32,000 nt of DNA. It comes from Bellilinea caldifistulae. Its GTDB lineage: Bacteria; Chloroflexota; Anaerolineae; Anaerolineales; Anaerolineaceae. A program made the translations under genes and the position numbers. Where the stretch lies: contig NZ_LGHJ01000013.1 in assembly GCF_001306055.1 (NCBI RefSeq), forward strand, positions 150,001 to 182,000, in the 5' to 3' direction. The notes under the pieces are model-generated. The model made no database searches. It was not told where the DNA came from and worked only from the letters and a program-made list of their open reading frames with translations. Below are positions 3,905-32,000 of the stretch, piece after piece; the stretch's first letter is position 1, and each line of letters opens with the position of its first letter.

Positions 3905-4016
3905 AGTACAGGAAACCTCCGCCAACGAAAATGGACTGCCCCTGCTGGAAAAGATGCACGGCAAAGGGAATGTTTGAGGCAATTTTACTTCAATTTTGGA
4001 AAAAAAATAAAAAAGG

Positions 4017-4088
4017 TGGCAAGGGTGGGGGTCGAACCCACGACCAAGGGCTTATGAGTCCCCTGCTCTACCACTGAGCTACCTTGCC
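4017..4088 (-). tRNA. tRNA with CAU anticodon (elongator Met or lysidine-type Ile2)
   Basis: The reverse complement reads GGCAAGG TA GCTC AGTGGTA GAGC A GGGGA CTCATAA GCCCT TGGTC GTGGG TTCGACC CCCAC CCTTGCC A, a full 72-nt cloverleaf. The anticodon CAT is at 4054-4056. G1-C72 is paired and position 11:24 is C:G, so it is not an initiator. CC, but not the final A of CCA, is encoded at 4015-4016. A T-run follows at 4000-4014. Confidence 0.93.
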
Positions 4089-15617: not shown

Positions 15618-17339
15618 TTGAGTGAAATCAAATCTGCTGTGCGGGGCGATCAACTGGCAGCAAATTTAGAAAATCTGCGGTCAGCCTGTTACGCCATTTA
15701 CAACTACCTCCAGGTCAATCGTCCTGCCGCCCTTCCACCGTCATTTTTTGAAACCGTATTTGGGATTACCGCCCTGGTCAAGAAAATTACGGCACAGTTT
15801 GAAGAGCTGGAGGAAGAACGCCGTAGTCTGACCGCGCTGGCCGGCATGGGGCAGGTGATCAACACCTCACTGGAATTGAACACCGTCCTCCAAATTGTTA
15901 TGGATACCATCATTCGGTTAACCGGCGCAGAACGCGGATTTCTGATGTTGAAGGATGACACGGGCAATCTGGTCACCCGGATTGCTCGCAACTGGGTTCA
16001 GGAATCGCTGAACACCACCGAATTGCACATCAGTTTTACGGTGATTGACCGCGTAGCCAGCGAAGGCTTACCCGTGCTGACCACCAACGCTCAGGAAGAC
16101 CCGCGTTTTGGAAAACAGGACTCGGTCATTGCCCACAACCTGCGCTCGATCATGTGTGTGCCGTTGAGAGTCAAAAGTGAGGTGACCGGTGTCATTTATG
16201 TGGATAATCGCATCCGCAGCGGCTTGTTCACTGCAAAACAGCTGGATTTACTGGCCGCTTTCGCCAATCAGGCAGCAGTTGCCATTGAAAATGCCCGCCT
16301 GTTTGCCTCGGTACAACGCAGCCTTGCCGAAGTAACCGAATTGAAAAGTTTGATGGACAAGGTGTTTGCCTCCATTGCCAGTGGAGTCATCACCGCGGAT
16401 ATTGACGGGAACATCTTGTTGTGTAACCGGGCAGCCGAACAAATCCTCAATCAGAGTGCCACGGGACTCGGCAGTCAAAAGCTGCAGCAAATTCTCACCT
16501 CGCTTTCCCCTGCCCTGATTCCAGAATTGCAACAAGTCCTTCAAACCGATCAGCCGGTATTGGGTCTGGAAATTTCACCGGCCATTGCCGGGCGTGGACG
16601 GATTGATTTGCGAATCAGCATCACTCCGGTCAAGGATGGTCAGCAACAGACACAGGGAGTTGCTCTTGTACTGGATGATATGACCGAGAAAAAATTATTG
16701 GAAGCCCAACGCCGATTGTTTGAAAAAATGGTTTCGCCGGCCGTCATCCGTCAGTTAAACCCGGATAGCCTGATTTTAGGAGGTCAGCGCAAAGAAATTA
16801 CCGTTTTATTTGCGGATATTCGCGGATTTACAGGCATCAGTGAGAAGTTATCTCCCGAAGAGCTCGTCTCCATTCTCAACCGCCACCTGGCCGCCGCTGC
16901 CGAGGCCATCCTGCAGGAAGAGGGCACGATTGATAAATTCCTCGGAGATGCCGTCATGGCCTGGTTCAATGCACCTGTGCGCCAGCCCGATCACGCTCTC
17001 CGGGCTGTACGGGCTGCCCTGCACATCCGCGATTCTCTTAAATCCCTTCATCAGGAATTACCACCCGAACAGCGGCTTTCCTTTGGAATTGGGATCCACA
17101 CCGGCGAAGCAGTTTTGGGACTTATCGGCAGCGAAAAACGCCTTGAATATACCGCCATTGGAGATTGTATCAACACCGCCAAACGGATTCAGGAAAATGC
17201 ACGCCCCAATCAAATCCTGGTCACGCAGGAAGTGATTGATCGTCTGGCTGGTTATGCGGCCTATCAACCGGTGGAAGCCATTCGGGCAAAAGGCAAACGT
17301 GAACCGGTTCAGGTTTACGAGATCAACTTCCTGGTTTAA
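15618..17339 (+). CDS. GAF-PAS sensor class III adenylate/guanylate cyclase
   Basis: GAF region (ERGFLMLKDDTGNL...VIYVDN). PAS region (ASIASGVITADIDGNILLCNRAAEQIL). Cyclase homology domain with metal Asp residues in VLFADIRGFT and KFLGDAVMAWF, and YTAIGDCINTAKRIQ. TTG start with AGGAAG upstream. Confidence 0.88.
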   Translation: MSEIKSAVRGDQLAANLENLRSACYAIYNYLQVNRPAALPPSFFETVFGITALVKKITAQFEELEEERRSLTALAGMGQVINTSLELNTVLQIVMDTIIRLTGAERGFLMLKDDTGNLVTRIARNWVQESLNTTELHISFTVIDRVASEGLPVLTTNAQEDPRFGKQDSVIAHNLRSIMCVPLRVKSEVTGVIYVDNRIRSGLFTAKQLDLLAAFANQAAVAIENARLFASVQRSLAEVTELKSLMDKVFASIASGVITADIDGNILLCNRAAEQILNQSATGLGSQKLQQILTSLSPALIPELQQVLQTDQPVLGLEISPAIAGRGRIDLRISITPVKDGQQQTQGVALVLDDMTEKKLLEAQRRLFEKMVSPAVIRQLNPDSLILGGQRKEITVLFADIRGFTGISEKLSPEELVSILNRHLAAAAEAILQEEGTIDKFLGDAVMAWFNAPVRQPDHALRAVRAALHIRDSLKSLHQELPPEQRLSFGIGIHTGEAVLGLIGSEKRLEYTAIGDCINTAKRIQENARPNQILVTQEVIDRLAGYAAYQPVEAIRAKGKREPVQVYEINFLV

Positions 17340-18463
17340 CCCCCACCGCCCCCATTCTTTTGCCAGATCCGCTCAATCACCATTAACACTTGCTGAAGAC
17401 CCAGACGGATTGGGGGAATTTCAAGGTATTCGCTGAAGGTGTGGGGAGCGCCTCCGCGCGTCAGACCCAAACATACCGCAGGTATGCCCTGACTGAGGGG
17501 AATATTCGCATCGGTTGAGCCAATCTCCAGCACCGCCGGTACATGCAATTCCGCCAGACATTCCAGCGCCAGTTTGACCAGTGGATGAGATGGACGGATA
17601 CTCCCTGCCGGGCGGACGCCAATTAATTCCATTTCAAAGTGTACCCCTTTGCGTTCTCTGCCCGCAACAATCCGTTTGACCCGTTGGACAAGGCGGTTCA
17701 AGCCGTTTTGATCCTCCGAACGCAGGTCAACTTCACAAAATGCACTGGCAGCAAGCGTATTAATGGAAGTGCCTCCCTGCACAATGCCTACATTCAGGCT
17801 GGAGCGCGGTTTTTGGGGCAAGATGATTTCTGCCATGGTATGAATGACCGCCGCCAGTTCGTGAATGGCAGAAGGTTCACCCTGATTAACCCACGCATGG
17901 CCGCCCTGACATTGAGCCGTGATCCGGTAGCGCGCAACACCCAATCCCCGATGGCAAACCTGTCCCAGACCCAAACCCTCCAAAACCACGTAAGCCTGCA
18001 CAGCCCCACCAAACCGCTCCACCACTGCCCTCATGCCGGCCAGGTTGCCAAGACCTTCCTCACACACATCCGCTACCAACCAGATATCCCCTTCAAACCG
18101 TGCACCCTGTTGCACCAGACACTTGCCAATCGTCAACAAAGCTGCCAGTCCCAGCGCATTATCGGCTGCACCGGGGCCGGTGATTTTTCCGGTGGTGACT
18201 TCCAGCGGTAAAGGTAAATCGGCGGGATGAACCGAATCAAGATGAGCCGAGAGAATCAAAGGCGGCGCCTTGCCCCCTTTCCATCTGGCAAACACATTAT
18301 TTTGCTCATCCAGGAAAACCTCATCTATCCCCATTCGCAAAAATTCATCGCGCAGGTAGATCGCCCGGCGGCCTTCCTGAAAAGTCGGCGCCGGAATCTG
18401 TTGAATTCGAGCAGTCTGCTCAACAATATAATCCAGCAGTTCGGCGGGTAATGCGATCATCAA
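17336..18463 (-). CDS. M20 family metallopeptidase/deacylase (ArgE/DapE/PepT-like)
   Basis: Motifs LILSAHLDSVH, PGAADNALG and CEEGLGNLAG, plus an inserted dimerisation-type domain. The start overlaps the upstream gene stop (ATGA). Confidence 0.8.
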   Translation of the reverse strand: MMIALPAELLDYIVEQTARIQQIPAPTFQEGRRAIYLRDEFLRMGIDEVFLDEQNNVFARWKGGKAPPLILSAHLDSVHPADLPLPLEVTTGKITGPGAADNALGLAALLTIGKCLVQQGARFEGDIWLVADVCEEGLGNLAGMRAVVERFGGAVQAYVVLEGLGLGQVCHRGLGVARYRITAQCQGGHAWVNQGEPSAIHELAAVIHTMAEIILPQKPRSSLNVGIVQGGTSINTLAASAFCEVDLRSEDQNGLNRLVQRVKRIVAGRERKGVHFEMELIGVRPAGSIRPSHPLVKLALECLAELHVPAVLEIGSTDANIPLSQGIPAVCLGLTRGGAPHTFSEYLEIPPIRLGLQQVLMVIERIWQKNGGGGG

Positions 18464-19476
18464 ATTTTACTCACCATCTCGCGCAGTTTTTCCAATCGCA
18501 TTTTGGGTAAACCGGGCAACACATCCAGCGCATAAAAGGGGCCGCTGCCTTCCACCACAATAGACGCTGAGATGTTACCCCACAAAGCAGCTTCCAGCGG
18601 GTCGTAAGTCTGACGCAGACCGGCCAGAAAACCTCCGCAAAAGGCATCCCCCGCTCCGGTTGGATCAACCACGCGGGCAGGATAAGCAGGAATCACCCAG
18701 CGTTGATGACCCGACCGCGAGTAAACCCATTGACCCTGACTTCCGCGCTTAATCACCACAATTTCACAGTCAAATGAGCTTAGCCGCTCGGCCATTTCCC
18801 ACAGGTCATCCGTTAAACCTTCGTACAAACGGCGTAATTTCCTTTCTGAACATACAATGGCGCTAACCCCTCTCAACATCGCCGGGATGTCGTCCCGAAA
18901 AGTCGGATTCATGCTGCCCTCGGAAGGATCCATGGTCAAAGTAGTAATTTGTCCTCGCCGAAAGAGGGAAGGTAGCAAAGCCTGCGTCAGATAATCAATC
19001 GGGGCTATATGGGCAGCCGTGGCATCCAGAAAATCCGGCGGAAAATCGCCGGCGCGAATTGTCCAATCGGTTGGTTGCACCCGGCTGTCAACCTGACTGG
19101 CCGGCAGAGAATAACCCAGCAGCGCTTTCGGAAAAGGAAGCCCCAGTCTTGAAAAGTGCGCCAGAGGGGCATCCGATACCTCTTCATCGCCATTCGGATA
19201 GGCTGCAAAATAACGCGTTTCCAGCGCTGAGGGCAGGATTTTAATTCCCCGACAATCAAAACCCCGTGCGGTAAACTGATCGAGCCAATCGTGCGGATAA
19301 TCTTCACCTACCCGTCCAATCAACCCGATTCCCTGATCCCACAACCTGACACCGACTGCCGTATAAATCAGACTGCCGCCGGGAATATCCAGCGCTGGTT
19401 TACCGTTCAAAGGAAGGATAAAATCCCGCCTTAACTTTCCGGCAATCAAATAGCGAATAAAAGGAGCGCTTTCCAA
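18460..19476 (-). CDS. PfkB family carbohydrate/nucleoside kinase
   Basis: C-terminal signature DPTGAGDAFCGGFLAG and the N-terminal GG motif IPGGSLIY. TTG start. Confidence 0.85.
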   Translation of the reverse strand: MESAPFIRYLIAGKLRRDFILPLNGKPALDIPGGSLIYTAVGVRLWDQGIGLIGRVGEDYPHDWLDQFTARGFDCRGIKILPSALETRYFAAYPNGDEEVSDAPLAHFSRLGLPFPKALLGYSLPASQVDSRVQPTDWTIRAGDFPPDFLDATAAHIAPIDYLTQALLPSLFRRGQITTLTMDPSEGSMNPTFRDDIPAMLRGVSAIVCSERKLRRLYEGLTDDLWEMAERLSSFDCEIVVIKRGSQGQWVYSRSGHQRWVIPAYPARVVDPTGAGDAFCGGFLAGLRQTYDPLEAALWGNISASIVVEGSGPFYALDVLPGLPKMRLEKLREMVSKI

Positions 19477-19508
19477 AAGACCCCCGCCCGGCGCAATCGT
19501 TTATTGAA

Positions 19509-19712
19509 TTACTTTTTCGAACCGGCTATATCGGCAATCAACCGCAGTAATCCCAATACGCCTACACCGACTTTCACCCCATCTCCGGCAGTTAAACGAG
19601 GCATCTGTTGGGTCTCTTCTGCCCGTTGAATGAGGAGAAGCGCGGCAATGATCCCGGCAGCTGCCCCAAGTAAGCCCCCAATCACGATTATTTTGGTTTT
19701 CCAGTTATCCAT
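19509..19712 (-). CDS. Small hypothetical membrane protein (67 aa)
   Basis: Two hydrophobic Gly/Ala-rich helices (IIVIGGLLGAAAGIIAALLLI and VGVGVLGLLRLIADIAG). AGAGGA ribosome-binding site upstream of the ATG. It lies in an operon position between two same-strand genes. Confidence 0.6.
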   Translation of the reverse strand: MDNWKTKIIVIGGLLGAAAGIIAALLLIQRAEETQQMPRLTAGDGVKVGVGVLGLLRLIADIAGSKK

Positions 19713-19752
19713 CAGAAATCCTCTTGGAATGAAGTGAGATTAAGGCTGAAAC

Positions 19753-20181
19753 TCAACGGCGGATGACTCTGGAACGCAGGTAACGGAAACCAGCTACCCA
19801 TCCACCCCAGCGGATGAAAGGCCGGGCAAGCCGATCACAGAAGGCTCGCACCTGCAACACCATCACCTGTGAATACACCTGACCAACCCGCAAGTAAGGA
19901 GGAAGCACCTTCAGGAGCTTATTCATTAGATAAATCAGACCGATATTCAACGCCAGAAACAGGACAGCGAAGAGAATCAGCGGACTGATCAGCCAGATAA
20001 TGGAAATGGCTGCCCAATGACCGGTACGCGAAGTCCCCAGCGTGGGGGTGAGTACCATAAGCAGTCCCAAACCCAAAAACATCAGTCCCGCCAATATTAC
20101 CGGCATGAAGATCTGCCAGATAACCTCGCGGCGATGTTTTTGGAAAGAAGGTGAAGGAGGAGTTTTACTTTCCAATCCCAT
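19753..20181 (-). CDS. Hypothetical integral membrane protein (142 aa)
   Basis: Three hydrophobic helices and a basic C-terminal tail. The ATG is directly preceded by an extended -10 element. Confidence 0.6.
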   Translation of the reverse strand: MGLESKTPPSPSFQKHRREVIWQIFMPVILAGLMFLGLGLLMVLTPTLGTSRTGHWAAISIIWLISPLILFAVLFLALNIGLIYLMNKLLKVLPPYLRVGQVYSQVMVLQVRAFCDRLARPFIRWGGWVAGFRYLRSRVIRR

Positions 20182-20187
20182 GCAATT

Positions 20188-20196
20188 ATTGTAGCA
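20188..20196 (-). promoter_or_regulatory. Extended -10 promoter 6 nt from ATG 20181 (leaderless-type)
   Basis: The minus strand reads TGcTACAAT-AATTGC-ATG. A 10-nt direct repeat GTGTTTTTCA occurs twice at 20197-20218 and covers the -35 region. Confidence 0.5.
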
Positions 20197-20244
20197 TGAA
20201 AAACACGCTGAAAAACACCCGGATAAGCGATTGAAAAATGTGAC

Positions 20245-21105
20245 TTATGACGAAAGCCGTGTCTCCGCCCAAACCACGCGGGGCAATCCCTGTAAATCGT
20301 GGATGATTTGAACTTGAGCGGTCGGCAACCATCTGGTGGCAAGCTGGGTCACCGCTTCAGCCTGACTCGCTTCAATCTCCAACAGCAGCAATCCGCCTTT
20401 TGCGAGCCACCGCTCTGAATCCCGGAGCAAAGCAGCAATCCAATCCAAGCCTTCCGAACCGCCATCCAGGGCAAGTTGCGGTTCAAACCGGCCGACCGGC
20501 AAATGCGCCAGTTCGCCCGTGGGAATATACGGCAAATTCGCACAAACCAGATCAAACAGCCCCCCCAAGGCATCCAGCAAGTTACCGATAACAGGAAAGA
20601 TGCGCGGTGAAACGCCCAAACCCTCAAAATTACGACGGGCAATCAGCATCGCCTGCCACGAACGCTCCACCGCGACGCATTTCAAATCCGGCACATGATA
20701 AGCCAGCGAAGCGGCAATACAACCCGAGCCTGTCCCCACATCGGCTGCCATACGACGATTTGGGTGTGATTTCAACCAGTCCAGCGCTTTTTCGACCAGT
20801 ATTTCGGTTTCAGGACGCGGAATTAAGACTTCCGGTGAAACGTTGAAAGTCAGCCCAAAAAATTCACGGTGACCGGTCAGGTAAGCCAGCGGCTCACCCT
20901 GCTCAAAGCGGGTCAGCAGACTTGCCAGTTGTTCTTGCTGTTCATTTTCCAGCCTGTATTCGGGGTGGGCCAGTACAAATTCGCGGCTTTTCCCAAGCAC
21001 GTGAGCCAGGATCACCTGGGCTGCTAGCCCCCCATCTTCTATATTTTTCAACCTCCGCCGCGCAGACTTCAGCCAATCACCGGCATCACAGCTGGGCAGT
21101 TTCAT
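20245..21105 (-). CDS. prmC: Release factor glutamine N5-methyltransferase
   Basis: SAM-binding motif [10 protein letters not shown] and catalytic-loop motif CANLPYIP (a variant of NPPY). Located immediately downstream of prfA, overlapping it by 20 nt. Confidence 0.88.
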
Positions 21106-22156
21106 GGGCAGTCAGCCGCTCGGTTTCATCCCGCAAAGCCAGCTCTTCAATGAATTCGTCCAATTCGCCATCCATCACCGCTGGCAGATTGAAGGATGAA
21201 AGATTGATACGGTGATCCGTAACGCGGTTTTGCGGGTAATTGTAGGTGCGTATTTTTTCCGAACGCTCACCCGTGCCAACTTGCGACCGGCGCGTTTCAT
21301 CCAGTTCCTGCTGACGGCGATTTTCTTCAATTTCGTATAATTTGGCTCGTAAAATACTCATCGCCCGCAGGCGGTTTTGTAATTGAGAGCGCTCATCTTG
21401 ACACGCCACCACAATCCCGGTGGGGATGTGGGTGATGCGTACGGCTGTCGAGTTTTTCTGAACATTTTGTCCACCAGCACCCGCCGAGCGATAAATATCA
21501 ATCCGGATATCTGATTCCGGAATATCAATGTCCACTTCTTCCACCTCCGCCAGTACGGCCACGGTGACGGTGGACGTGTGAATCCGGCCGGAAGCTTCGG
21601 TTGCCGGCACCCGCTGGACGCGGTGAACGCCGGACTCGTATTTCAGGCGGGAGTACGCGCCTTTTCCTTTGACCATAAAGATAATCTCTTTGAAGCCGCC
21701 GATGCCGGTTTCGTTTTGAGAAAGAATTTCCACCGTCCAGTTGCGCCGTTCGGCATAACGGCTGTACATGCGAAACAGATCGGCTGCAAACAGAGCGGCT
21801 TCTTCACCGCCGGTTCCGGCGCGGATTTCCATAATCACATTGCGTTCGTCGCGTTTATCTTTGGGCAGCAAAAGCGCTTTGATTTCCCGTTCAAGTGCTT
21901 CCTGACGCGGCTCCAGTTCTTCTAAATCCTGCCGGGCAAGCAGACTGAGTTCTTCATCCTCACCATCCACCAGTTGACGGGCTTCCTCAATGCGTTTTAA
22001 TACCTGCCGGTATTCACGCCCTTTTTCGACAATTTCCTCCAAATCAGCGCGCTCCTTAGCCAGTTCAGCTGCCCGCTGATAATCATCACCCGCTTCTTCC
22101 AACAGCCGATTCAATTCTTCGTATCGTTCTTCGATCTTGGTAATTTTTTCCAGCAT
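21086..22156 (-). CDS. prfA: Peptide chain release factor 1
   Basis: PAT tripeptide anticodon in [15 protein letters not shown], and GGQ in [11 protein letters not shown]. The length and coiled N-terminus are typical of RF1. Confidence 0.95.
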
Positions 22157-22193
22157 ACAGTTGACTTCCAGTCATTCAATTTGCAAGCATATT

Positions 22194-22202
22194 ATTATAC
22201 CA
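22194..22202 (-). promoter_or_regulatory. Extended -10 promoter of prfA
   Basis: The minus strand reads TGgTATAAT (consensus -10 with TGn) 37 nt upstream of ATG 22156. GGAAG ribosome-binding site lies in between. No good -35 at 17 nt; TTGACA sits at 23 nt. Confidence 0.5.
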
Positions 22203-22249
22203 GCCTGTGGCACCTGAACAAATGTCAATTATCCAAAGCAGCCGAGTAA

Positions 22250-23086
22250 TTAGATCTTGCTGATCAATTCAATGTTAATCGCCTGAATGCCTCCACCACG
22301 TTCAGAGCGCGCCAGTTCCATTTCGAATATATAACTTCGGCTGGGCAGCACCGTTGGACGCACCGCTTCGGGTAAATTCGAGTCATGAAAAAAGGCGGTT
22401 GCGTAGGGTGAATCCGGGTGGCGTGTATCGGTGAGCCATAAGCCGGGAGCTATGGATTTCAGGTAACGCATAAACCCATAACCCTGTTCGCTGTGCCAGT
22501 AACACCATCCTCGTACCCGTGACCCAACCTCGCCCCACTCCGGTTGATCGGTTTTGTAATTGTTGACCGGGATCAAATTTGGAATCAGGTAACCGGAGAT
22601 GAAAAAATCTGCTTCATGGCGCAGTTTGCTGGAAACATTGTCCAGCGCCATGACTTCTACCCTGCAGCCCTTATCCTGCAAGGCGCGCACCACCTGAACA
22701 AAATCGCCATCACCGCTGGCAAGCAGTACCCGATCAAGTTTGGCAGATTGCAGAAGCGCGTCCACAGCCAGATCTAAATCTGCGTTGGCTTTACCATAAC
22801 GGTTGCCGCTTTCATCCTCAAACCATTGGATTTCCTTGACAATCACCTTATAGCCCATATCCCGCAAGGCTGAATGAAAATTTTGAGTGCCTTTGCGGTA
22901 CACTTCATCCCATTCCGCCCGCTCGCGATCATAACTTACATAGGCATTCATACGCACAGGCTCGGCAAAATCACGACAGGCAAATTCTCGCAGTACATCG
23001 TACTGCATTTTCGATCCCCCGTTATTATAGATATAGGCTACATCCACATAAATACCGACTTTACTGCCACCACCTGATATGGGCAT
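22250..23086 (-). CDS. NYN (LabA/DUF88-like) nuclease domain fused to a cold-shock-like OB domain
   Basis: NYN motifs VGIYVDVAYIY and LLASGDGDFVQVV. The C-terminal region RVRGWCYWHSEQGYGFMRYL...TAFFHDSNL...YIFEMELARSERGGGIQAINIELI resembles a CSD with an insertion. ATG 23086 has AGGAGA 5 nt upstream, so the ORF-track start 23131 was rejected. Confidence 0.75.
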   Translation of the reverse strand: MPISGGGSKVGIYVDVAYIYNNGGSKMQYDVLREFACRDFAEPVRMNAYVSYDRERAEWDEVYRKGTQNFHSALRDMGYKVIVKEIQWFEDESGNRYGKANADLDLAVDALLQSAKLDRVLLASGDGDFVQVVRALQDKGCRVEVMALDNVSSKLRHEADFFISGYLIPNLIPVNNYKTDQPEWGEVGSRVRGWCYWHSEQGYGFMRYLKSIAPGLWLTDTRHPDSPYATAFFHDSNLPEAVRPTVLPSRSYIFEMELARSERGGGIQAINIELISKI

Positions 23087-23202
23087 ATATTCTCCTGAAC
23101 ACAGATATCTACGGAAAGTTTCATCCCCCAATAGGGGGGATTAATCACACCAAAATTTTATAATTTTTACACAGTTCAAAGGTATATTTTTTAGTTGCTC
23201 AA

Positions 23203-23325: not shown

Positions 23326-26082
23326 TTAAATTGATTCTTTTCTGCGCTGCACCCCCTTGAAAATTTCCACCGCAATAAAAACGAGCGTACTCAACCCAAA
23401 GCTTACCAGCAAATCCTCTGCCGGCAGCGCACGGGTATTGAACACATTCTGCAAAAATGGAACGTACACCACCGCCATTTGCAAGGCGAATGTCAACAAG
23501 ACCGCTCCCAGAAGAGACTTGTTTGAGAACAAGCCGATTTGAAACAGCGAATAGCGATTGGACCGGGTCGCCAGGACGTTCCCCATTTGCGCCAGAGTGA
23601 GGGTAGTGAATACCATCGTCTGCCAGGTTTCCGTCCTGCCGGTATTCAAAGCCCACAAGCCTGCCGCCAGTGAAACCAACCCCATCCACAGTCCAATCCA
23701 TAAAATATCCCGCGCCATCCCTCTCGCAAAGACATTCTCCTTCGGGGGGAAAGGCTTGCGCTTCATTGCATCCCGCTCAGCCGGTTCCACCGTTAGCGCC
23801 AGCCCCGGTAAACCGTCGGTCACAAGGTTGACCCATAAAATCTGAATCGGGGTCAGCGGGAGGGGCATTCCCAAAAACGGCCCGGCCAGCATCACCCAGA
23901 TTTCACCGGCATTGGAGGTCAATGTGTACTTGATAAATTTACGGATATTGTCGTAAATCCGCCGACCTTCCTCGATGGCGGCTACGATGGTTGCAAAGTT
24001 ATCGTCCAGCAAGACCATATCCGCCGCTTCTTTGGAAACATCGGTACCGGTGATTCCCATGGCAACCCCAATATCGGCTTTCTTTAGCGCCGGCGCATCG
24101 TTGACCCCATCTCCGGTCATTGCAACAATTTCACCTTTTTCTTGCAGTGCCTGCACGATTTTCAACTTATGTTCTGGAGAAACGCGCGCAAATACCGAAA
24201 CATGATCCAGCGCTTTTTTCAACTCTTCGAGGCTCATATTGGCCAGTTGCTGACCGGTAATCGCTTCGCCGTCAGGGGTGGTGATGCCCAGCTCGCGCGC
24301 AATGTGGAGTGCGGTCAAGGGATGATCTCCGGTAATCATGATTGGACGGACACCTGCCGATTTGGCGGTTGCCACGGCATCCTTAACCTCTGGACGGGCC
24401 GGGTCAATCATCCCCACCATCCCGATGAAAATTAAATTTTCTTCTTGAGGTTTTTCACATCCTTCCACCTGCTCCGGCGGACAAAGCCGGAAAGCCACTC
24501 CCAGCACCCGCATTCCCTTCATCGCCATTTCTTCATTGGCTTTTTCGATCCGCCGGCGCCATTCTGCATCGAGAGGCACACTCCGATCTTCAACCCACAC
24601 ACGGTTACATACTTCCAACAGGCTGTCCACCGCTCCCTTGGTGATGGAAATATATGGCTGCCAGATTTCGCTGGAAAGCACTCGCTCAGCCGTTTTTAAT
24701 ATCTGCGGTAACTCGTCTTGATTCAGGCGGTGAACAGTGGTCATCCGCTTGCGTTCCGAGTCGAAAGGCAATTCAGCCACGCGTGGCAGGGCTTTTTCCA
24801 GTTCATCCTTCCACAAACCCGCCCGTGCACCGGCGATTACCAGGGCACCTTCGGTCGGGTCGCCGACCGAAACAAAACCGCCGCGCGCACTTTCGTTGAC
24901 TTCGATGACCGCATCGTTGCACAATGTACCCCCAACCAGTAACAAAGCCACGGCTGGGTGTTCTACCAGCACCGGTTCAACTTTCCGCCGCTCGGGTATT
25001 GTCGGTGAATAATTTTGAACCTCCTCCAGAAAGTCAATCCGATTTCCAGCCACATCCACCACGGTAACCGTCATGCGGTTTTCGGTGAGGGTGCCGGTTT
25101 TGTCGGAACAAATCGTGGTTACCGAACCGAGGGTTTCCACAGCCGGTAATTTGCGAATCAACGCCCGGCGCTGGAGCATACGCTGAGCGCCAAGCGCCAG
25201 CGCAATGGTCACCACTGCCGGCAATCCTTCCGGTACGGCAGCAACCGCCATGCTGATGGCCGTCTGGAACATGATTCGGATCGGCTCACCGCGCAGGACT
25301 CCCAGTGCAAAGACAATCCCAACGATGACGAGGGCGGCCACAGCCAGCCCTTTACCCAGTTGTTCCAGACGTTTCTGGAGCGGCGTGGCTTCCTGCCCCA
25401 CCCCCTGAATCATATCGGCAATCCGTCCCAGTTCGGTTTGCATGCCGGTTTGCACCACCACTGCCGAACCACGTCCGTAGGTGGTCACCGTTCCCATGAA
25501 AACCATGTTGTGCTGGTCGGCCACCGGGATGTTCTCTCCCTTGATCACTTCAGTATTTTTTTCTACCGGCTCCGATTCACCGGTGAGAACTGCTTCCTGA
25601 ACCCGCAGGTTAACGGCTTCAATCAGTCGGCAATCAGCCGGAACCGCATCTCCCGCATCCAGCTGAATGACATCTCCCGGCACCAATTCACGGGAAGAAA
25701 TTTCAATCAAATGCCCATCCCGGTGAACTTTGACCTTTGGCGCCGCCATCTTTTTCAAAGCCGCCATCGCCCTTTCTGCACGGTATTCCTGCGTGAACCC
25801 CAACAACGCATTCAGCACCACGATGATCAGGATCACAATCGCATCGGTTACTTCGTGAAGCAGAATCGAAATGACCGCCGAGATAATCAGGATGACCACC
25901 ATGATCTCGGTTAATTGTTCCAGCAGTATTTTCCACGGGCTTTTCAAGCCCCGTTCAATCAATTCATTTGGGCCGTATTTTGCCCGCCTTTTTTCGACTT
26001 CTGCAGTGGTCAGACCATGCTTCAGGTCGGTTGAGAGTTCCGACTCAATTTCGTCGAGAGATTTCGAGTACCAGTTTTTCAT
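23326..26082 (-). CDS. P2A-type (SERCA/PMR1-like) cation-transporting ATPase, probable Mn2+ or Ca2+/Mn2+ exporter
   Basis: Motifs TGES (LTGESEPV), phosphorylation site [15 protein letters not shown] and [13 protein letters not shown]4 has VPEGLPAV and TM6 has [17 protein letters not shown] ribosome-binding site. The gene is preceded by a Mn2+ riboswitch. Confidence 0.92.
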
Positions 26083-26628: not shown

Positions 26629-26637
26629 TGGTACAAT
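26629..26637 (+). promoter_or_regulatory. Extended -10 promoter 8 nt from ATG 26646 (leaderless-type)
   Basis: TGgTACAAT at 26629-26637, followed by agaatgtc and then ATG. No Shine-Dalgarno sequence. Confidence 0.45.
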
Positions 26638-26645
26638 AGAATGTC

Positions 26646-27389
26646 ATGAATTGGGTGTTTCTCTCCCCCCATCTGGATGATGCCGTACTTTCGTGCGGCG
26701 GGTTGATTTACGAACTCATCCAAAACGGGGAGAAGGTGGAAATTTGCACAATTTGCGCGGGAGATCCCCCTCCGGGAGAACTTTCTCCCCTGGCCGAGAT
26801 GTTACATCAACGATGGGGGGTCACTGCCGCTCAATCTCAGGCCACTCGCCGGAACGAAGACCTGGCCGCCTGTCAGGTGCTCGGTGCAACGCCATTTCAT
26901 CTGGATATCCCCGATTGTATTTACCGCCGAAATCCGAACACCGGTGAGCCCCTCATCACCGCCAACGAGGCTCTCTTCCAACCCTTGCCGGCGGTGGAGT
27001 ATCCCCTTGCGGCTCAACTGGCACAGCAGTTAGCCGGTCACATTCCCACTGCCAGTCGGATCGTTTGCCCGTTGACCCTCGGCGGACATGTGGATCACCA
27101 CCTGACCCGCACCGCTGCTGAACAACTTGGCAGACCGCTTTGGTATTATGCCGACTACCCCTATTTACTGCAAGAATCCGGAAAACTGCACGAATATTTA
27201 TCCCCCGCATGGCGAAACCATGAAATTGCCATATCTTTATGCGGCTGTCGGGCGTGGCAGGATGCAATTGCCTGCTACCAATCCCAAATCAGTACTTTCT
27301 GGTCAGGCACCGAGGAAATGAGAAAAGCCATCTCTCATTACTGGCAAAAAGGCGGAGGAAGCACCCTCTGGGAAGCGTCATCATCCTGA
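26646..27389 (+). CDS. PIG-L/LmbE family N-acetylglucosaminyl deacetylase
   Basis: N-terminal motif LSPHLDDAVLSCGG (PHxDD...GG) and zinc-ligand motif GGHVDHH. Confidence 0.85.
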   Translation: MNWVFLSPHLDDAVLSCGGLIYELIQNGEKVEICTICAGDPPPGELSPLAEMLHQRWGVTAAQSQATRRNEDLAACQVLGATPFHLDIPDCIYRRNPNTGEPLITANEALFQPLPAVEYPLAAQLAQQLAGHIPTASRIVCPLTLGGHVDHHLTRTAAEQLGRPLWYYADYPYLLQESGKLHEYLSPAWRNHEIAISLCGCRAWQDAIACYQSQISTFWSGTEEMRKAISHYWQKGGGSTLWEASSS

Positions 27390-27442
27390 AATTGCTTCCT
27401 CATAGAGGATATCACCTCTAAAAAATTGCATTTAAAAAATTA

Positions 27443-27451
27443 TGCTATACT
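27443..27451 (+). promoter_or_regulatory. Extended -10 promoter 6 nt from ATG 27458 (leaderless-type), head of the uncharacterised operon
   Basis: TGcTATACT at 27443-27451, followed by gatacc and then ATG. No Shine-Dalgarno sequence. An AT-rich tract lies upstream. Confidence 0.5.
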
Positions 27452-27457
27452 GATACC

Positions 27458-27715
27458 ATGCAAGAGGTACAATCCTGCTGGCAAAAATGGGCAAATTTCC
27501 TTAAGGAAAGAAACCTTGAGGAAATTACAATCACCTTACTGGAAGCCGCCGGTCCGCTGAAAGTCCTTGCCGCCCAGTTTGTTTATGCCGGAATGCCGCT
27601 TCTTGAAACTTTTTCTCCCTCTAAAAGAGTCTGGTTCGAACTGGCTAACCTGTTGGAAGACAATCAGCGCAGCCAGAGTTTCATCGCGTACCTGCGCGGG
27701 GAGGTTGATGAATAA
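27458..27715 (+). CDS. Hypothetical small protein (85 aa), first gene of the uncharacterised operon
   Basis: An ORF with one central hydrophobic stretch (GPLKVLAAQFVYAGMPLL). Its stop TAA overlaps the next ATG by 1 nt (TAATG). Confidence 0.55.
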   Translation: MQEVQSCWQKWANFLKERNLEEITITLLEAAGPLKVLAAQFVYAGMPLLETFSPSKRVWFELANLLEDNQRSQSFIAYLRGEVDE

Positions 27716-28458
27716 TGGTTGATGCGATCATCGCACTGACGTTGATTGCGGTCACTGCCGGATTAATCCTGTTGTTGACCATCCAGCGCAATATCCTACG
27801 CAGTGAACTGCGTCAACTGCTGGCCTTTGAACGCCTTCGACAGGCAATTGGACTGGCAGTGGAAAACGGCACCCGCATTCACATCACCCTCGGCAAAGCC
27901 GGTCTGCCTGCTTCGACCAGCGCTGCCGGATTGACCGGTCTCACTACCCTGGAGCGGATTGCCCGGGTAAGCAGTATCAGCGACCGTCCTCCACTGGCTA
28001 CCAGCGGAGATGGCACGCTGGCGCTGCTCAGTCAGGATACACTGCGGGCGGCTTACCGTCAAATCAATCAGCTGGAATTGTATGACCCCAGTCGCGGCCG
28101 ATTGACCGGCCCCACCTCATTTTCTTACATTGCCGGAGCCTTGCCGGTTGCTGACAGCGAAAACGTTTCCACTCATCTGGCAATTGGCAATTTTGGTCCT
28201 GAAATTGCTTTGTTGATGGAAGCCGGAGAACAGCAAGAATCCTTTACACTGGCCGCCACCGACTCGCTTAGCGCACAGGCTGCACTATTCACCAGCAGCC
28301 AGGAAACCCTGATTGGTGAAGAATTATTTGCCATCCCAGCTTATCTCAACAGTGGGCCGGTTTATACCGCCAGCCTGCAAGTCCAGGATATTCTTCGCTG
28401 GGGGGTGATTGTAACCATCATCGCAGGTTCCATTTTGAAATTGTTAGGGATTGTATGA
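27715..28458 (+). CDS. Hypothetical bitopic membrane protein (247 aa)
   Basis: N-terminal TM IIALTLIAVTAGLILLLTI and C-terminal TM WGVIVTIIAGSILKLLGI flank a Gly/Ala/Ser/Thr/Leu-rich domain of about 190 aa. GGGGAGG lies 11 nt upstream. I recognise no catalytic motif. Confidence 0.65.
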   Translation: MVDAIIALTLIAVTAGLILLLTIQRNILRSELRQLLAFERLRQAIGLAVENGTRIHITLGKAGLPASTSAAGLTGLTTLERIARVSSISDRPPLATSGDGTLALLSQDTLRAAYRQINQLELYDPSRGRLTGPTSFSYIAGALPVADSENVSTHLAIGNFGPEIALLMEAGEQQESFTLAATDSLSAQAALFTSSQETLIGEELFAIPAYLNSGPVYTASLQVQDILRWGVIVTIIAGSILKLLGIV

Positions 28459-29072
28459 GAGCGCCAATCTCCACTGCGATTGCAATTGCTACCGGGCTTC
28501 TGATTTTATTGGGGGCTTTTCTGCCCATACCCGTGTTGCTTCCCATCCGTCAAATCCTGCTGTCCTGGACAATCCCGGTAGCAGCCACAGCTGGCTTGAT
28601 CGCCATCCTCAACCTTCTGAGCGTTCACTGGCGTAAATTAAACTCCGCCCGCGAACGCGATTATTACAGCATCTTCCTTTTACTGGCTTTTGCGGCAACT
28701 TTTGCAGCCGGCCTGATCCTCGGCCCAACCGACCCCGACTTTCAAAAGATTGTCACCCACATCCAGTTTCCCGTAGAAGCCAGCTTAATGGGTGTGCTAA
28801 CCGTTACTCTGACTTATGCCAGCATTCGTCTTTTTCAACGAAAACGTGGATGGTTGGCGGTCTTATTCACGGCTAGCACCATCCTGTTCCTGATTTTGTT
28901 GAGCGGCTTTTTGAATATCTCCGAAAATATCCCCTTTGTAAAGGATTTTTTGGCCGCACTCAACACCCTGCCGATTGCCGGGGCAAGGGGTATTTTGCTG
29001 GGCATTGCCCTGGGTAGCATCACAACCGGTTTGCGTATCCTCATTGGTGCAGACCGGCCTTACAGTGGATAG
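28455..29072 (+). CDS. Hypothetical polytopic membrane protein (205 aa, about 6 TM)
   Basis: ATGA overlap with the preceding gene, with an AGGGA ribosome-binding site. There are six hydrophobic helices. Confidence 0.65.
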   Translation: MRAPISTAIAIATGLLILLGAFLPIPVLLPIRQILLSWTIPVAATAGLIAILNLLSVHWRKLNSARERDYYSIFLLLAFAATFAAGLILGPTDPDFQKIVTHIQFPVEASLMGVLTVTLTYASIRLFQRKRGWLAVLFTASTILFLILLSGFLNISENIPFVKDFLAALNTLPIAGARGILLGIALGSITTGLRILIGADRPYSG

Positions 29073-29076
29073 TCAT

Positions 29077-31470
29077 ATGAGCGAGATCATTTGTCCACAT
29101 TGCGGGGCTTCAAACCCAACCGATGCGATTGAATGTAAAAAATGTCATCGCTTTCTTTTCGAAACCCCCTCTTCCAGCGCTTTTCCGTTTTCCGGGGATG
29201 ATGATGACTGGTTGAAAAACCTGAGGGAAGACACCGAACCTCTACCCGAATCCGAAAGCGATGAAGCAAAATCAACCGAAACGCCTCCTTTCTCCGAAGA
29301 AGTTCCGGACTGGCTGGCACGCATCCGCCAGCGTTCACAAGAAGAGCTTGGGAGTGAAGAGGGACAGCCGGATGAAGCAGCCCAGGAAGAAGAACTACCC
29401 GACTGGTTGAAGGATGTGGAAATCAGTGCGGGTCATTCTGGGCCAGCCTCCGTTGAAAGCAGTGACGAGGAAGAACTCCCCCTGCCGGATTGGCTTTCAC
29501 TGGTCAGTTCAGAGGAAGAAAGCGAGACACCACCCTCGCCGCCCGCCCCAGCCGGTGAGGAAGAACTGGATATCAGCCAGGAGCAGTTACCGGACTGGTT
29601 GAAGGGTATTGAACAACCCGAAGAAACCGCCGAGGAAAGCCCCATTGCCCCGCAAGAAACCGCCGACTGGCTGACGGGTTTGAGCCTGTTCAAAGAAGAT
29701 GAGGAAGTTACCGAGCAACCCCCCTTCCCCGCCCCGGCGGAGGAAGAACCGGACTGGCTGCAATCTTTTGAAACATTTGAGACAACCCCAGCCGCCTTTA
29801 CAGAGGAACAACCATCCCCCGCCGAAGCGGACGAGGACTGGCTGAAGGCTTTTGAGTCCTTTGAAGGAACTTCCGAACCCACCTCGATTGAAAGCGAACC
29901 GCCGGGCACCCTCCCAGACGAAGCGTGGCTGCAAACCGCCGAAGAACTCCCCGCCGAATCCGCATTTCAGGAAGCCGGCGTTCAGGAATTGGAAAATTTG
30001 GCGGAAACCATTCCTGAAGAATTTTCCGCCGCAGAAGACCAGCTGACATCTCTCCCACCTTTTGAAGAGGGTCTTGCGGCGCTTTCCGATGAACTTCACG
30101 GCGTTTCAGCCGGGGAACAACCGGTAGAGCCAGAAGATTTCAGATCCTTCCTGGAGGAAATTCCCTCGCTAGGCGAAGGCGCTTCATCTGCTTTCATTTT
30201 GGAAACACCATCTGACCAACCTGCGGTTGAACAAGAATTTGAGGTCTCTCCCTTTATCAGCGAGGAGCTGCCCGAATGGTTCGATGAACAGGTCCTCGAA
30301 TCTTCCGTTGAACCTACCGGCGCTGCTCCCGAAGGTGAAGAGAGCCTCGAACCGGCCGAATTACCCGGCTGGCTGGAAGCCATGCGCCCCATCGAAGCGG
30401 TTGCACCGGGGCGGGTCGGTACCGATGAAGATCAGCGCATTGAAACCAGCGGTCCCCTTTCCGGTTTTCAGGGTGTGCTTCCGGCTGAAGCATTGATCAC
30501 CCAATACAGCAAACCTTCCATTTATTCCGCTCGTTTACAGGTCAACGAGAAACAGCGCAACTACGCCAATCTTCTGGAATCGATACTTCAACAGGAAAAA
30601 CAAGGCCATCCTTCCAGCGGGGTGAAAAGCGCAGGACCGCAGATCCTTGCTCGCATGTTGATCGGAATTTTGCTGGCAGTAACGATTTTATTCGTCCTGG
30701 TAGGCGGAGTTAGCCTTGCCTCACCGCCGGCTTTGTTTGCCCCAGAAAATGTGGCCTTCTTTTCTCAAATTCGTTCCCTAACTTCTTCCGCAGAATCGAA
30801 CGCCCCGATACTTCTCGCCGTGGATTTCGAACCAGCCCTGGCAGGCGAGATTTCCACGGTTGCCTCACCGGTGATGGACGATTTGATCCAATCCGGAAAA
30901 AGCATGGTGGTTGTCTCGATCAATCCCACCGGTGCTGTGCTGGCAGAAGAACTTTTGCTGAACAACGCTTCCGATGGACAAGTACTCAATTTGGGATATC
31001 TGCCCGGGGGAGTTTCTTCCATTGCGGCTCTGGCAAGCCAGCCCGCACTGGCTGCTTCGCGCGACCGGTTTGGAACCTACGCCTGGGATCGCCAACCCTT
31101 CCAGACCGTCCAACACATTACAGACTTTGCGGCGATACTGCTGGTTACCGACAACACCGACACCAGTCGTTTGTGGATTGAACAACTCACGCCGTTATTG
31201 GACAAAACCCCCCTGTTGGTCATCGCCAGCAATCAAGCCGCACCGATGATTCAACCTTACGTCCAAAACGGGCAGTCAGCGGGTATGCTGGCCGGGTTGC
31301 CCGGACTGGCTGCCTATCAGCAATTGAACGGACGAACCGTCGGGCTTTCTGCCGGCTATCTGGATGCCTACCAGGCCGGGTTGATGGTCATTGTCGTGCT
31401 GGTCCTCCTTTTTAGCCTGTATTATCTGGTGATGCAATTATTCAAGAAGCCCGAAATAAAGGGGAAATAA
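29077..31470 (+). CDS. Zinc-ribbon protein with long acidic PDWL-repeat region, two TM helices and an intervening domain of about 230 aa
   Basis: ATG 29077 lies 4 nt after the preceding stop; the ORF-track start 28975 overlaps the previous gene. It has a CPHC...CKKC zinc ribbon at the N-terminus, an acidic low-complexity region of about 400 aa with repeated DWL motifs, TM ILARMLIGILLAVTILFVLVGGV, a globular region, and a terminal TM GLMVIVVLVLLFSLYYLVMQLF followed by KKPEIKGK. Confidence 0.75.
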   Translation: MSEIICPHCGASNPTDAIECKKCHRFLFETPSSSAFPFSGDDDDWLKNLREDTEPLPESESDEAKSTETPPFSEEVPDWLARIRQRSQEELGSEEGQPDEAAQEEELPDWLKDVEISAGHSGPASVESSDEEELPLPDWLSLVSSEEESETPPSPPAPAGEEELDISQEQLPDWLKGIEQPEETAEESPIAPQETADWLTGLSLFKEDEEVTEQPPFPAPAEEEPDWLQSFETFETTPAAFTEEQPSPAEADEDWLKAFESFEGTSEPTSIESEPPGTLPDEAWLQTAEELPAESAFQEAGVQELENLAETIPEEFSAAEDQLTSLPPFEEGLAALSDELHGVSAGEQPVEPEDFRSFLEEIPSLGEGASSAFILETPSDQPAVEQEFEVSPFISEELPEWFDEQVLESSVEPTGAAPEGEESLEPAELPGWLEAMRPIEAVAPGRVGTDEDQRIETSGPLSGFQGVLPAEALITQYSKPSIYSARLQVNEKQRNYANLLESILQQEKQGHPSSGVKSAGPQILARMLIGILLAVTILFVLVGGVSLASPPALFAPENVAFFSQIRSLTSSAESNAPILLAVDFEPALAGEISTVASPVMDDLIQSGKSMVVVSINPTGAVLAEELLLNNASDGQVLNLGYLPGGVSSIAALASQPALAASRDRFGTYAWDRQPFQTVQHITDFAAILLVTDNTDTSRLWIEQLTPLLDKTPLLVIASNQAAPMIQPYVQNGQSAGMLAGLPGLAAYQQLNGRTVGLSAGYLDAYQAGLMVIVVLVLLFSLYYLVMQLFKKPEIKGK
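29197..30390 (+). repeat. Array of about 11 degenerate acidic (L)PDWL peptide motifs, coding repeat
   Basis: Strict Asp-Trp-Leu codons occur at 29206, 29308, 29401, 29488, 29593, 29665, 29752 and 29836. Degenerate copies are AWL (Trp codon at 29926), EWF (Trp 30277) and GWL (Trp 30370). The eight strict copies and the adjoining AWL copy are spaced 72-105 nt apart. Confidence 0.8.
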
Positions 31471-31475
31471 GCATC

Positions 31476-32000
31476 ATGGATGTTGATTTTGCCTGGACCG
31501 CGGTTGCTTTCATTCTCACCCTGTTAACCCTCAGTTATATTCTTGGGGATAATCCCCTCTTCCGTTTGGCTGCCTATTTATTTGTAGGTGTCTCTGCCGG
31601 ATACGTGGCCGTCATCCTGTTATTCGAGGTCATCGTTCCCCGTCTGGTTTCGCCGCTCATATTTGGCAGCCCTGCGGAAAAAATGCTCGCACTGGTACCG
31701 GCCGTGTTGAGCCTGTTGCTGCTTTTCAAATTATCTCCCCGGCTGACCACGCTGGGCAATCCCTCAATGGCGTTTCTGGTCGGCAGCGGTGCGGCGGTCA
31801 TCGTCGGCGGAGCGGTCAGCGGCACCCTTTTTGGACAAATCCGCGGCGCAATTCAGCCATTTGCGCTCTCCCAAAGCGGCAGCGGTTTGCAGACAGGCGG
31901 TCAGTTATTCGGTGGACTCATCCTGTTAATCGGTACAATCTCTACATTGGTTTACTTTCAATTCAGCGCCCGCCGAAAAGCCAATCAACAAACCAGGCGG
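31476..32000 (+). CDS. Hypothetical polytopic membrane protein, N-terminal part (3' end outside window)
   Basis: Not in the ORF track because no stop is reached. ATG 31476 lies 5 nt after the previous stop, with AAGGGGA upstream. The frame is open to nt 32000 and reads MDVDFAWTAVAFILTLLTLSYILGDNPLFRLAAYLFVGVSAGYVAVILLFEVIVPRL..., with at least 4 hydrophobic helices. Confidence 0.7.
   Translation, partial: MDVDFAWTAVAFILTLLTLSYILGDNPLFRLAAYLFVGVSAGYVAVILLFEVIVPRLVSPLIFGSPAEKMLALVPAVLSLLLLFKLSPRLTTLGNPSMAFLVGSGAAVIVGGAVSGTLFGQIRGAIQPFALSQSGSGLQTGGQLFGGLILLIGTISTLVYFQFSARRKANQQTRR

Follow-up and report, generated by a model that had tools for sequence, protein, structure and literature searches.

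A conserved eight-gene operon of Anaerolineales that may encode an ATPase-associated, wall-tethered membrane complex

MamJ, an acidic repetitive protein, joins a membrane structure of the magnetosome chain to the actin-fold ATPase MamK, and the bitopic protein RodZ binds MreB through its cytoplasmic domain. GltJ from the Agl-Glt gliding machinery of Myxococcus has an N-terminal zinc ribbon, a flexible linker bearing peptide-motif or peptide-binding elements, one transmembrane helix and an extracytoplasmic part, and belongs to a cytoskeleton-tied trans-envelope complex. In other bacteria, the C-terminal tail of FtsZ docks on FtsA, an actin-fold ATPase. Here, we describe an operon encoding mostly membrane proteins at the 3' end of a 32,000-nucleotide stretch of Bellilinea caldifistulae DNA (contig NZ_LGHJ01000013.1, positions 150,001 to 182,000; hereafter the window), with five open reading frames (ORF1 to ORF5) inside the window and three (ORF6 to ORF8) beyond it. 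With slightly less than even confidence, we propose that the encoded proteins form a membrane complex for envelope morphogenesis that is tethered to the wall and associated with an ATPase.

Gene order, conservation and promoter of the operon

A sequence-only reading of the window had proposed a translationally coupled operon of at least five membrane proteins. The coordinates, overlaps, gaps and sizes of all five ORFs were confirmed (Table 1), whereas the operon proved to be longer. The genes past nt 32000 were read from DF967971.1 (a 3.7-Mb contig of assembly GCA_001050215.2), which contains an exact match to the ORF2 sequence. In this contig, ORF6, ORF7 and ORF8 follow directly downstream of ORF5 to give an eight-gene unit. 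This operon is inherited vertically across Anaerolineales, and the five window ORFs form its promoter-proximal section. The absence of a nucleotide-binding gene from the original five-gene set is correct inside the window, but results from the window edge cutting the operon, since a PF13941 ATPase (ORF6) lies just past it. The suggestion that an ATPase partner might be found past this point was thus borne out, with ORF7 and ORF8 in addition.

For comparison, we used the best 80 of 310 species-representative genomes that carry DUF6754, the family of ORF2, as found by scanning a genome collection with this protein. All 80 belong to Anaerolineae (Bellilinea, Anaerolinea, Levilinea, Longilinea and Thermanaerothrix), with Bellilinea genomes closest to the source genome in the ORF2 scan. 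Gene order was scored by tblastn with all eight proteins against each locus. Wherever a locus of these Anaerolineales genomes is long enough to judge, the eight genes lie on one strand in the same order, which is also kept in three more distant metagenome loci, in which ORF2 is 42-51% identical, the flanking genes differ and ORF4 is shorter (436-555 aa). The synteny that the sequence-only reading had asked to be checked is thus strongly conserved. From ORF1/2 to ORF5/6, the median intergenic distances are -4, -4, +4, +5 and +9 nt (up to 78 orthologous loci), followed by about 38 and 29 nt for ORF6/7 and ORF7/8. The recurrence of such tight spacing in orthologous loci indicates that the packing is not due to chance, in agreement with the proposed co-translation. 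ORF1 was found in 77 of the 80 loci, and sequence identity across loci ranges over 47-92% (ORF2), 37-96% (ORF3), 26-77% (ORF4), 43-92% (ORF5), 39-93% (ORF6), 40-95% (ORF7) and 31-95% (ORF8). These results support a functionally linked, co-translated set composed mostly of membrane proteins.

Two of the distant loci show deviations from the common gene content. One has an extra 171-aa ORF between ORF3 and ORF4 (L085, 3704-4219), and in the other the DUF6754 and MutL genes are in fragments, possibly as a result of assembly frameshifts or as pseudogenes (L082, 7817-8092 and 12030-13353; L-numbers denote loci with their own coordinates, L001 being the Bellilinea source locus). ORF8 is followed in L001 by a phosphoglucomutase gene on the other strand, and a GC-rich hairpin, CCCCGGCGAAAACCGTCGGGG, lies at 17998-18018 between this gene and the ORF8 stop codon. 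The hairpin, which was not listed by a consensus terminator scan, probably acts as a bidirectional terminator at the operon end.

Table 1. Features of the operon and its 5' neighbour (positions in the window unless a locus is named)
Feature	Position	Strand	Description or basis
Invariant T-R-TGCTATACT element	27441-27451	+	Alignment of DNA upstream of ORF1
ORF1	27458-27715	+	85 aa
ORF2	27715-28458	+	247 aa; 1-nt overlap with ORF1 (TAATG)
ORF3	28455-29072	+	205 aa; 4-nt overlap with ORF2 (ATGA)
ORF4	29077-31470	+	797 aa from ATG; 4-nt gap after ORF3
ORF4 putative zinc ribbon	29092-29145	+	CPHCG-x9-CKKC, residues 6-23
ORF4 acidic array	29179-30411	+	11 short motif copies, the last being ELPGWLEAMRPIE
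ORF4 conserved C-terminal module	30448-31467	+	Alignment and AlphaFold2 model
ORF4 juxtamembrane segment, predicted cytoplasmic	within 30448-31467	+	GPLxGxxGVLPxE...YSxxLxVxExQ
ORF4 transmembrane helix 1	30655-30711	+	Residues 527-545; hydropathy
ORF4 Rossmann-like domain, predicted outward-facing	30712-31377	+	About 220 aa; AlphaFold2 pLDDT (predicted local distance difference test) about 90
ORF4 transmembrane helix 2	31378-31434	+	Residues 768-786; hydropathy; basic tail after it
ORF5	31476-32000	+	Cut by the window end at residue 175; full length 225 aa in the source contig; 5-nt gap after ORF4
ORF6	beyond the window (L001, 14449-16170)		573 aa; GlmL/MutL-family ASKHA (actin-fold) ATPase, PF13941
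ORF7	beyond the window		349 aa; predicted cytoplasmic, barrel-sandwich hybrid and KOW-like motif
ORF8	beyond the window		210 aa; membrane protein with C-terminal LPxTG sortase signal
PIG-L/LmbE-family deacetylase gene	26646-27389	+	PF02585, E = 1e-17

A multi-gene cluster with an NTPase-like component and no assigned function could also be a mobile or anti-phage defence island, a reading that we find barely credible for this locus. PADLOC returned nothing for ORF1-7 and only two weak matches to the transmembrane and low-complexity part of ORF8, the flanks on the source contig showed neither integrase nor repeats, and each locus carries one copy, whose identity declines gradually with decreasing relatedness. 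No patchy distribution among close strains and no phage-resistance phenotype was seen. Moreover, GC content is even throughout the region, which shows that the cluster is not an island. Thus, these are vertically inherited housekeeping genes.

Alignment of the DNA upstream of ORF1 revealed an invariant element, T-R-TGCTATACT, which remains identical while ORF1 identity drops to 30-40% in the more divergent orthologues. A single copy of the TGCTATACT 9-mer is present in the window, where 0.04 copies would be expected. When counted over 81 loci (1.38 Mb of DNA, both strands), it was present as one copy in 76 of them, every time just 5' of ORF1, and nowhere else on either strand. The distance from its end to the ORF1 start codon is 6 nt in 56 of the 76 loci and 7 nt in eight. 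TRTGn followed by TATAcT is the extended -10 form of Gram-positive bacteria, and the presence of the element once per locus, always at the ORF1 site, argues for a putative extended -10 promoter (TRTGn-TATAcT). No conserved -35 was found upstream of ORF1 in the comparative alignment, and because of its absence a strict sigma-70 consensus scan missed this promoter. Since the 6-7 nt before the ATG leave no space for a Shine-Dalgarno sequence, the operon mRNA would be leaderless and start at the ORF1 ATG (27458), which makes the transcript start proposed earlier (about 27458) plausible.

Several chance copies of TGCTATACT would be expected across the 81 loci and none was seen outside the ORF1 site, so the 9-mer may be avoided elsewhere in the locus DNA. 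A similar layout, with TGnTAnAAT 4-9 nt 5' of the start codon, precedes at least 29 further genes in the loci (for example, near position 2482 of L001 on the minus strand); transcripts without a leader, or nearly so, may be common in this order.

Sequence features and predicted folds of the encoded proteins

The proteins were compared with Pfam and NCBIfam and, using sequence and profile searches, with the PDB, whereas AlphaFold2 models were submitted to Foldseek searches against the PDB. As the sequence-only reading had anticipated, none of these searches gave a confident match to a well-characterised family for the five window proteins. No catalytic or transporter signature was found in the window ORFs, as it had stated, and ORF2 belongs to a Pfam domain-of-unknown-function family, DUF6754. 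The PDB sequence and profile searches gave nothing meaningful for ORF2, the C-terminal module of ORF4, ORF6 or ORF7.

ORF6 matches PF13941 with 189.7 bits (cut-off 27, E = 1e-55) over 441 of the 450 profile positions. Its orthologues keep the ASKHA phosphate motifs DIGSxxTR, GGTExGA and GVDLGA and carry a conserved 125-aa C-terminal extension. The MutL family was the only match, with no FtsA, SHS2, PilM or MreB profile detected and no sequence relative in the PDB. These orthologues are named 'glutamate mutase L' in databases, and membership in PF13941 could mean that ORF6 reactivates a coenzyme-B12-dependent mutase, with the membrane genes being unrelated neighbours. We regard this metabolic reading as highly improbable. 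ORF6 scores far below the equivalog cut-offs for GlmL and Or-4 (83 vs 475 bits and 78 vs 600; NCBIfam NF040745 and NF040744, respectively), none of the loci has a gene for a B12-mutase subunit within 20 kb, and the additional C-terminal domain is conserved. The metabolic reading is also disfavoured by the fixed synteny, with ORF6 in the same order with seven non-metabolic genes in at least 80 genomes. The database name is misleading, since the equivalog cut-offs are missed and mutase genes are absent nearby, and this flags an annotation carried by hundreds of genes.

ORF4 comprises, in order, a putative zinc ribbon, an acidic repeat array, a transmembrane helix, an α/β domain predicted to face outwards and a second transmembrane helix. 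A mechanical ORF list gave an alternative start (TTG at 28975), but the ATG at 29077 is supported by the orthologues: of the 68 examined, 40 have CPxCG...CxxC at residue 6-7, and most of the remaining 28 are apparent start mis-calls of our own analysis. The zinc ribbon has a weak match to Zn_Ribbon_1 (PF13240; E = 4e-4, 20.4 bits vs a cut-off of 25), and its four cysteines are kept in 121 of 144 representatives of the ORF4 family. The repeat region consists of 25% Asp and Glu and contains copies of a motif with the consensus E-E-[ED]-L-P-D-W-L-x-x-[LF]-R (714 copies in the 68 orthologues). The core of this motif, [LVI]P.[FW][LM], is 36 times as frequent in ORF4 (6.3 per 1000 aa) as in the remaining ORFs of the loci (0.18 per 1000 aa).

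A phmmer search with the ORF4 repeat region returned 679 clusters. The 150 best-scoring ones comprise 144 with the same C-terminal module and six fragments, with no motif array on a non-ORF4 protein. This architecture is therefore specific to the family, which has at least 144 clusters at 50% identity. No Pfam (34-37 orthologues) or PDB sequence match was found for the C-terminal module. The N- and C-terminal flanks of the transmembrane pair are both basic, so the domain between the helices is predicted to face outwards; its best Foldseek match was a generic one to an RCK domain (E = 1e-3, TM-scores 0.28/0.53). The zinc-ribbon, acidic-repeat and two-helix architecture given in the sequence-only reading thus agrees with ours but is incomplete, lacking this folded domain.

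The LPDWL repeats resemble the C-terminal tail of FtsZ. In Thermanaerothrix, this tail ends in ...EDLNVPAFLRKRIQR (also written ...INTEDLNVPAFLRKRIQR), and the second ORF4 repeat in the window reads EEVPDWLARIRQR. The two share the core [LVI]-P-x-[FW]-[LM], represented by NVPAFLRKRIQR in the FtsZ tail and EVPDWLARIRQR in repeat 2. Furthermore, four Thermanaerothrix loci (L025, L027, L028 and L038) contain the 3' end of ftsZ at positions 1 to about 590, some 9.3 kb upstream from the cluster. Together with the rarity of the core in other ORFs, this likeness would fit a divisome-linked function, in which the array mimics the FtsZ C-terminal peptide, binds FtsA or SepF instead of ORF6, and recruits FtsZ to septa or competes with it there, while the rest of the complex couples the septal membrane to the wall. 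However, the two motifs differ beyond the five-residue core, the window and most loci lack ftsZ close to the cluster, and no FtsA or SepF gene belongs to the cluster, which makes a divisome-linked function distinctly unlikely. For the proposed wall-tethered complex, we instead suggest ORF6 as the docking partner, since the FtsZ tail binds the actin-fold FtsA and ORF6 is also an actin-fold protein.

ORF8 has an acidic N-terminal tail followed by a strong transmembrane segment, a Pro/Thr-rich region, LPNTG, a hydrophobic stretch and RRLR. Its score against TIGR01167 (LPXTG) is above the cut-off (18.8 vs 15.9 bits), and the C-terminal arrangement of [LMIV]PxTG-FADEVGLPG, hydrophobic stretch and RRLR is present in 65 of 65 orthologues. 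All 65 also have the acidic tail before the strong transmembrane segment, often with a DNQFEEF-like motif. This arrangement suggests a membrane-to-wall rivet, whose N-terminus would reside in the membrane and whose C-terminus would be joined to peptidoglycan if processed by sortase. ORF7 contains an RnfC_N barrel-sandwich hybrid domain, detected in 26 of 35 orthologues (best E-value 4.5e-9), and a KOW-like motif near the C-terminus.

ORF2 aligns to DUF6754 (PF20539) with 92.1 bits (cut-off 27, E = 4e-26; residues 7-245 on profile positions 14-249 of 257). This family has 2105 homologues in a set of 5.8 billion proteins, and PF20539 was present in 120 of 120 among the matches listed. Conserved motifs include SDRPPxATSGDG, LSQD, GNFGPE, IGEE and QDxLRW. 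Hydropathy indicates a transmembrane segment at both ends, and the AlphaFold2 model (pLDDT 87.5, predicted TM-score 0.83) shows a Rossmann-like domain of six strands between a transmembrane helix and a long C-terminal one. In the PDB, Foldseek matched this model to generic Rossmann-like folds only (E ≥ 5e-3, TM-score ≤ 0.52). An Arg-rich stretch follows the first helix, and by the positive-inside rule the ORF2 domain is probably cytoplasmic. ORF2 and the C-terminal module of ORF4 have a common layout of a Rossmann-like domain between transmembrane segments, but sequence paralogy of the two was not supported (hhalign probability 6%).

ORF3 shows five strong hydrophobic segments and one bearing an invariant Glu108, giving about six transmembrane helices, and ends with a conserved GARGILLGIALGS...RPYSG. 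ORF5 also has about six predicted transmembrane helices and is rich in invariant Gly. No significant Pfam family was found in 36 orthologues of ORF3 or in 37 of ORF5, and the sequence-only proposal that the two may be paralogues was rejected (hhalign probability 1.4%). ORF1 has no Pfam or NCBIfam match and no transmembrane segment above the hydropathy threshold; its invariant residues are W8, W11, L15, L28, P47 and F75.

Accordingly, the earlier description of all five window ORFs as membrane proteins holds for ORF2-ORF5 but not for ORF1, and its helix counts agree with ours (both ends of ORF2, about six in ORF3, two in ORF4, and a polytopic ORF5). Its proposed membrane complex with ORF4 providing the cytoplasmic face is retained for the mostly membrane character of the set but not for ORF4 as the only such face, because the ORF2 domain is also predicted to face the cytoplasm.

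A PIG-L gene is found directly 5' of the cluster in most loci by tblastn (callable as an ORF in 46 of 80), with a median gap to ORF1 of 77 nt. Together with the phosphoglucomutase gene downstream, its position raises the possibility of a machine that exports or assembles either an envelope polymer or a lipid-linked glycan. In such a machine, ORF3 and ORF5 would form the conduit, ORF6 would provide energy, a nucleotide-sugar or lipid-linked substrate would be bound at either membrane face by the Rossmann-like domains of ORF2 and ORF4, and the deacetylase would modify an N-acetylglucosamine-containing product. The invariant intramembrane Glu108 of ORF3 would be in keeping with such a role, as would conserved acidic, His and Ser residues of ORF2 that appear to lie in loops after predicted strands, the usual ligand sites of Rossmann-like folds. 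However, no transporter, flippase or glycosyltransferase family was found in any orthologue examined, ASKHA ATPases are not known to drive transporters, and the flanking genes differ in the distant loci. The PIG-L gene is not detected beside the cluster in about a third of the loci. It is preceded, 8 nt from its ATG, by a promoter-like element of its own, TGGTACAAT (26629-26637), and is thus probably transcribed separately. An export machine is therefore possible but unlikely.

Further upstream, the minus-strand regions 23326-26082 and 17336-23131 contain housekeeping genes (a P-type cation ATPase, an NYN-domain protein, RF-1, PrmC, a PfkB kinase and an M20/M28 peptidase), none of which adjoins the cluster in the distant loci. 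A tRNA-Met (CAT) gene (4015-4088, minus strand), far from the cluster, was the only RNA family match in the window in Rfam and tRNA scans.

A proposed wall-tethered complex

In the ATPase-associated, wall-tethered complex that we propose, transcription from the invariant extended -10 element would give a leaderless mRNA, and the membrane core would consist of two unrelated polytopic proteins, ORF3 and ORF5. ORF2 would contribute a conserved Rossmann-like domain on the cytoplasmic face, whereas ORF4 would place a second one outside and extend its zinc ribbon and acidic tail, with about ten LPDWL motifs, into the cytoplasm. ORF6 and ORF7 would be soluble cytoplasmic partners. The LPDWL array could serve as a multivalent docking site for ORF6, perhaps together with ORF7, in the way that the FtsZ tail docks on FtsA, and ATP turnover might then remodel or position the membrane complex. 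ORF8 would fix the complex to the wall, with its N-terminal anchor in the membrane and its LPxTG end joined to peptidoglycan by sortase. The most likely role of this set is housekeeping envelope morphogenesis or maintenance in monoderm filaments.

Several points weigh against this proposal. We infer all contacts among the proteins, and the topologies are predicted from the positive-inside rule only. The ORF2 and ORF4 domains appear to have generic Rossmann-like folds and, with only generic Foldseek matches (E ≥ 1e-3, TM-score ≤ 0.55), point to no particular function. The resemblance of the repeats to the FtsZ tail amounts to a five-residue core and is possibly convergent or irrelevant. In the source organism, the phosphate-1 motif of ORF6 has Glu (IEIGS) in place of the Asp of its orthologues (IDIGS). 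Characterised GlmL members are thought to be chaperones of B12-dependent mutases and not ATPases of membrane complexes. The described Anaerolineae are non-motile, and we know of no phenotype that such a system would explain.

A stronger form of the proposal, which we consider rather unlikely, is an order-wide trans-envelope device in which the FtsZ-tail-like array captures the GlmL-type ATPase or the divisome and the sortase-anchored subunit rivets the complex to peptidoglycan. If true, cytoplasm, membrane and wall would be coupled in a new way, by a device with a Rossmann-like domain on either face of the membrane. Four of the eight proteins have no family match at all, one is a DUF6754 protein and ORF4 has only the weak zinc-ribbon match, while the set includes an actin-fold ATPase outside its only known (metabolic) context and a protein whose design would link membrane to wall. 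These features jointly point to a lineage-specific housekeeping envelope machine. Anaerolineales are abundant in digesters, sediments and the subsurface, and their cell biology is almost unstudied. The FtsZ-tail-like array offers a testable handle on the envelope organisation of their filaments, and DUF6754 gains a genomic and structural context.

Comparison with known systems

The set matches no characterised system, and its novelty rests on this absence of matches and not on a demonstrated mechanism. No profile links it to the divisome, the elongasome, type IV pili or type II secretion, type VII secretion, Rnf/Nqr or defence systems, and literature searches found no published description of the cluster. 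Membership could be assigned only in DUF6754 (ORF2), the broad GlmL/MutL Pfam family (ORF6) and the LPXTG substrates (ORF8).

The Rnf/Nqr complexes are similar in the RnfC_N/NqrA_N domain of ORF7 and in the six transmembrane helices and size of ORF3 and ORF5 (about 200 aa), as in RnfA and RnfE. However, RnfA and RnfE are paralogues, whereas ORF3 and ORF5 are not, and no Rnf-Nqr, RnfD, FMN-binding or Fe-S family match was found in any ORF3 or ORF5 orthologue examined. Of the components of an Rnf complex (RnfA/E, RnfD, RnfG, RnfB and a full-length RnfC), only the N-terminal RnfC domain has a counterpart, in ORF7. The resemblance is therefore at the fold level only. ORF6 shares with GlmL/MutL proteins a nearly full-length Pfam match and the ASKHA phosphate motifs, but differs in its extra 125-aa C-terminal domain and in its location in a membrane-protein operon without mutase genes.

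The likeness of ORF4 and ORF6 to the MamJ-MamK and RodZ-MreB pairs is in architecture only, with no sequence or profile similarity to any of these four proteins in Pfam or NCBIfam, and GlmL-type proteins are not known to polymerise. The same is true of ORF4 and GltJ, which both combine a zinc ribbon (putative in ORF4), a linker with peptide elements, a transmembrane helix and an outer part; a weak GltJ match was given by ORF8 and not by ORF4 (E = 7e-5, 22 bits vs a cut-off of 450) and covers a transmembrane and low-complexity stretch. Unlike the Agl-Glt system, the cluster has no homologues of the Agl motor or of other Glt proteins, and its hosts are monoderm and described as non-motile.

The FtsZ tail and FtsA differ from the proposed ORF4-ORF6 pair in that FtsZ is a tubulin homologue with one copy of the peptide, whereas ORF4 has about ten copies on a membrane protein, and in that ORF6 belongs to the GlmL/MutL family without an FtsA or SHS2 Pfam match. 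The two pairs are alike in having a short acidic hydrophobic-Pro-x-aromatic-Leu peptide on a flexible linker, with an ASKHA ATPase encoded alongside.

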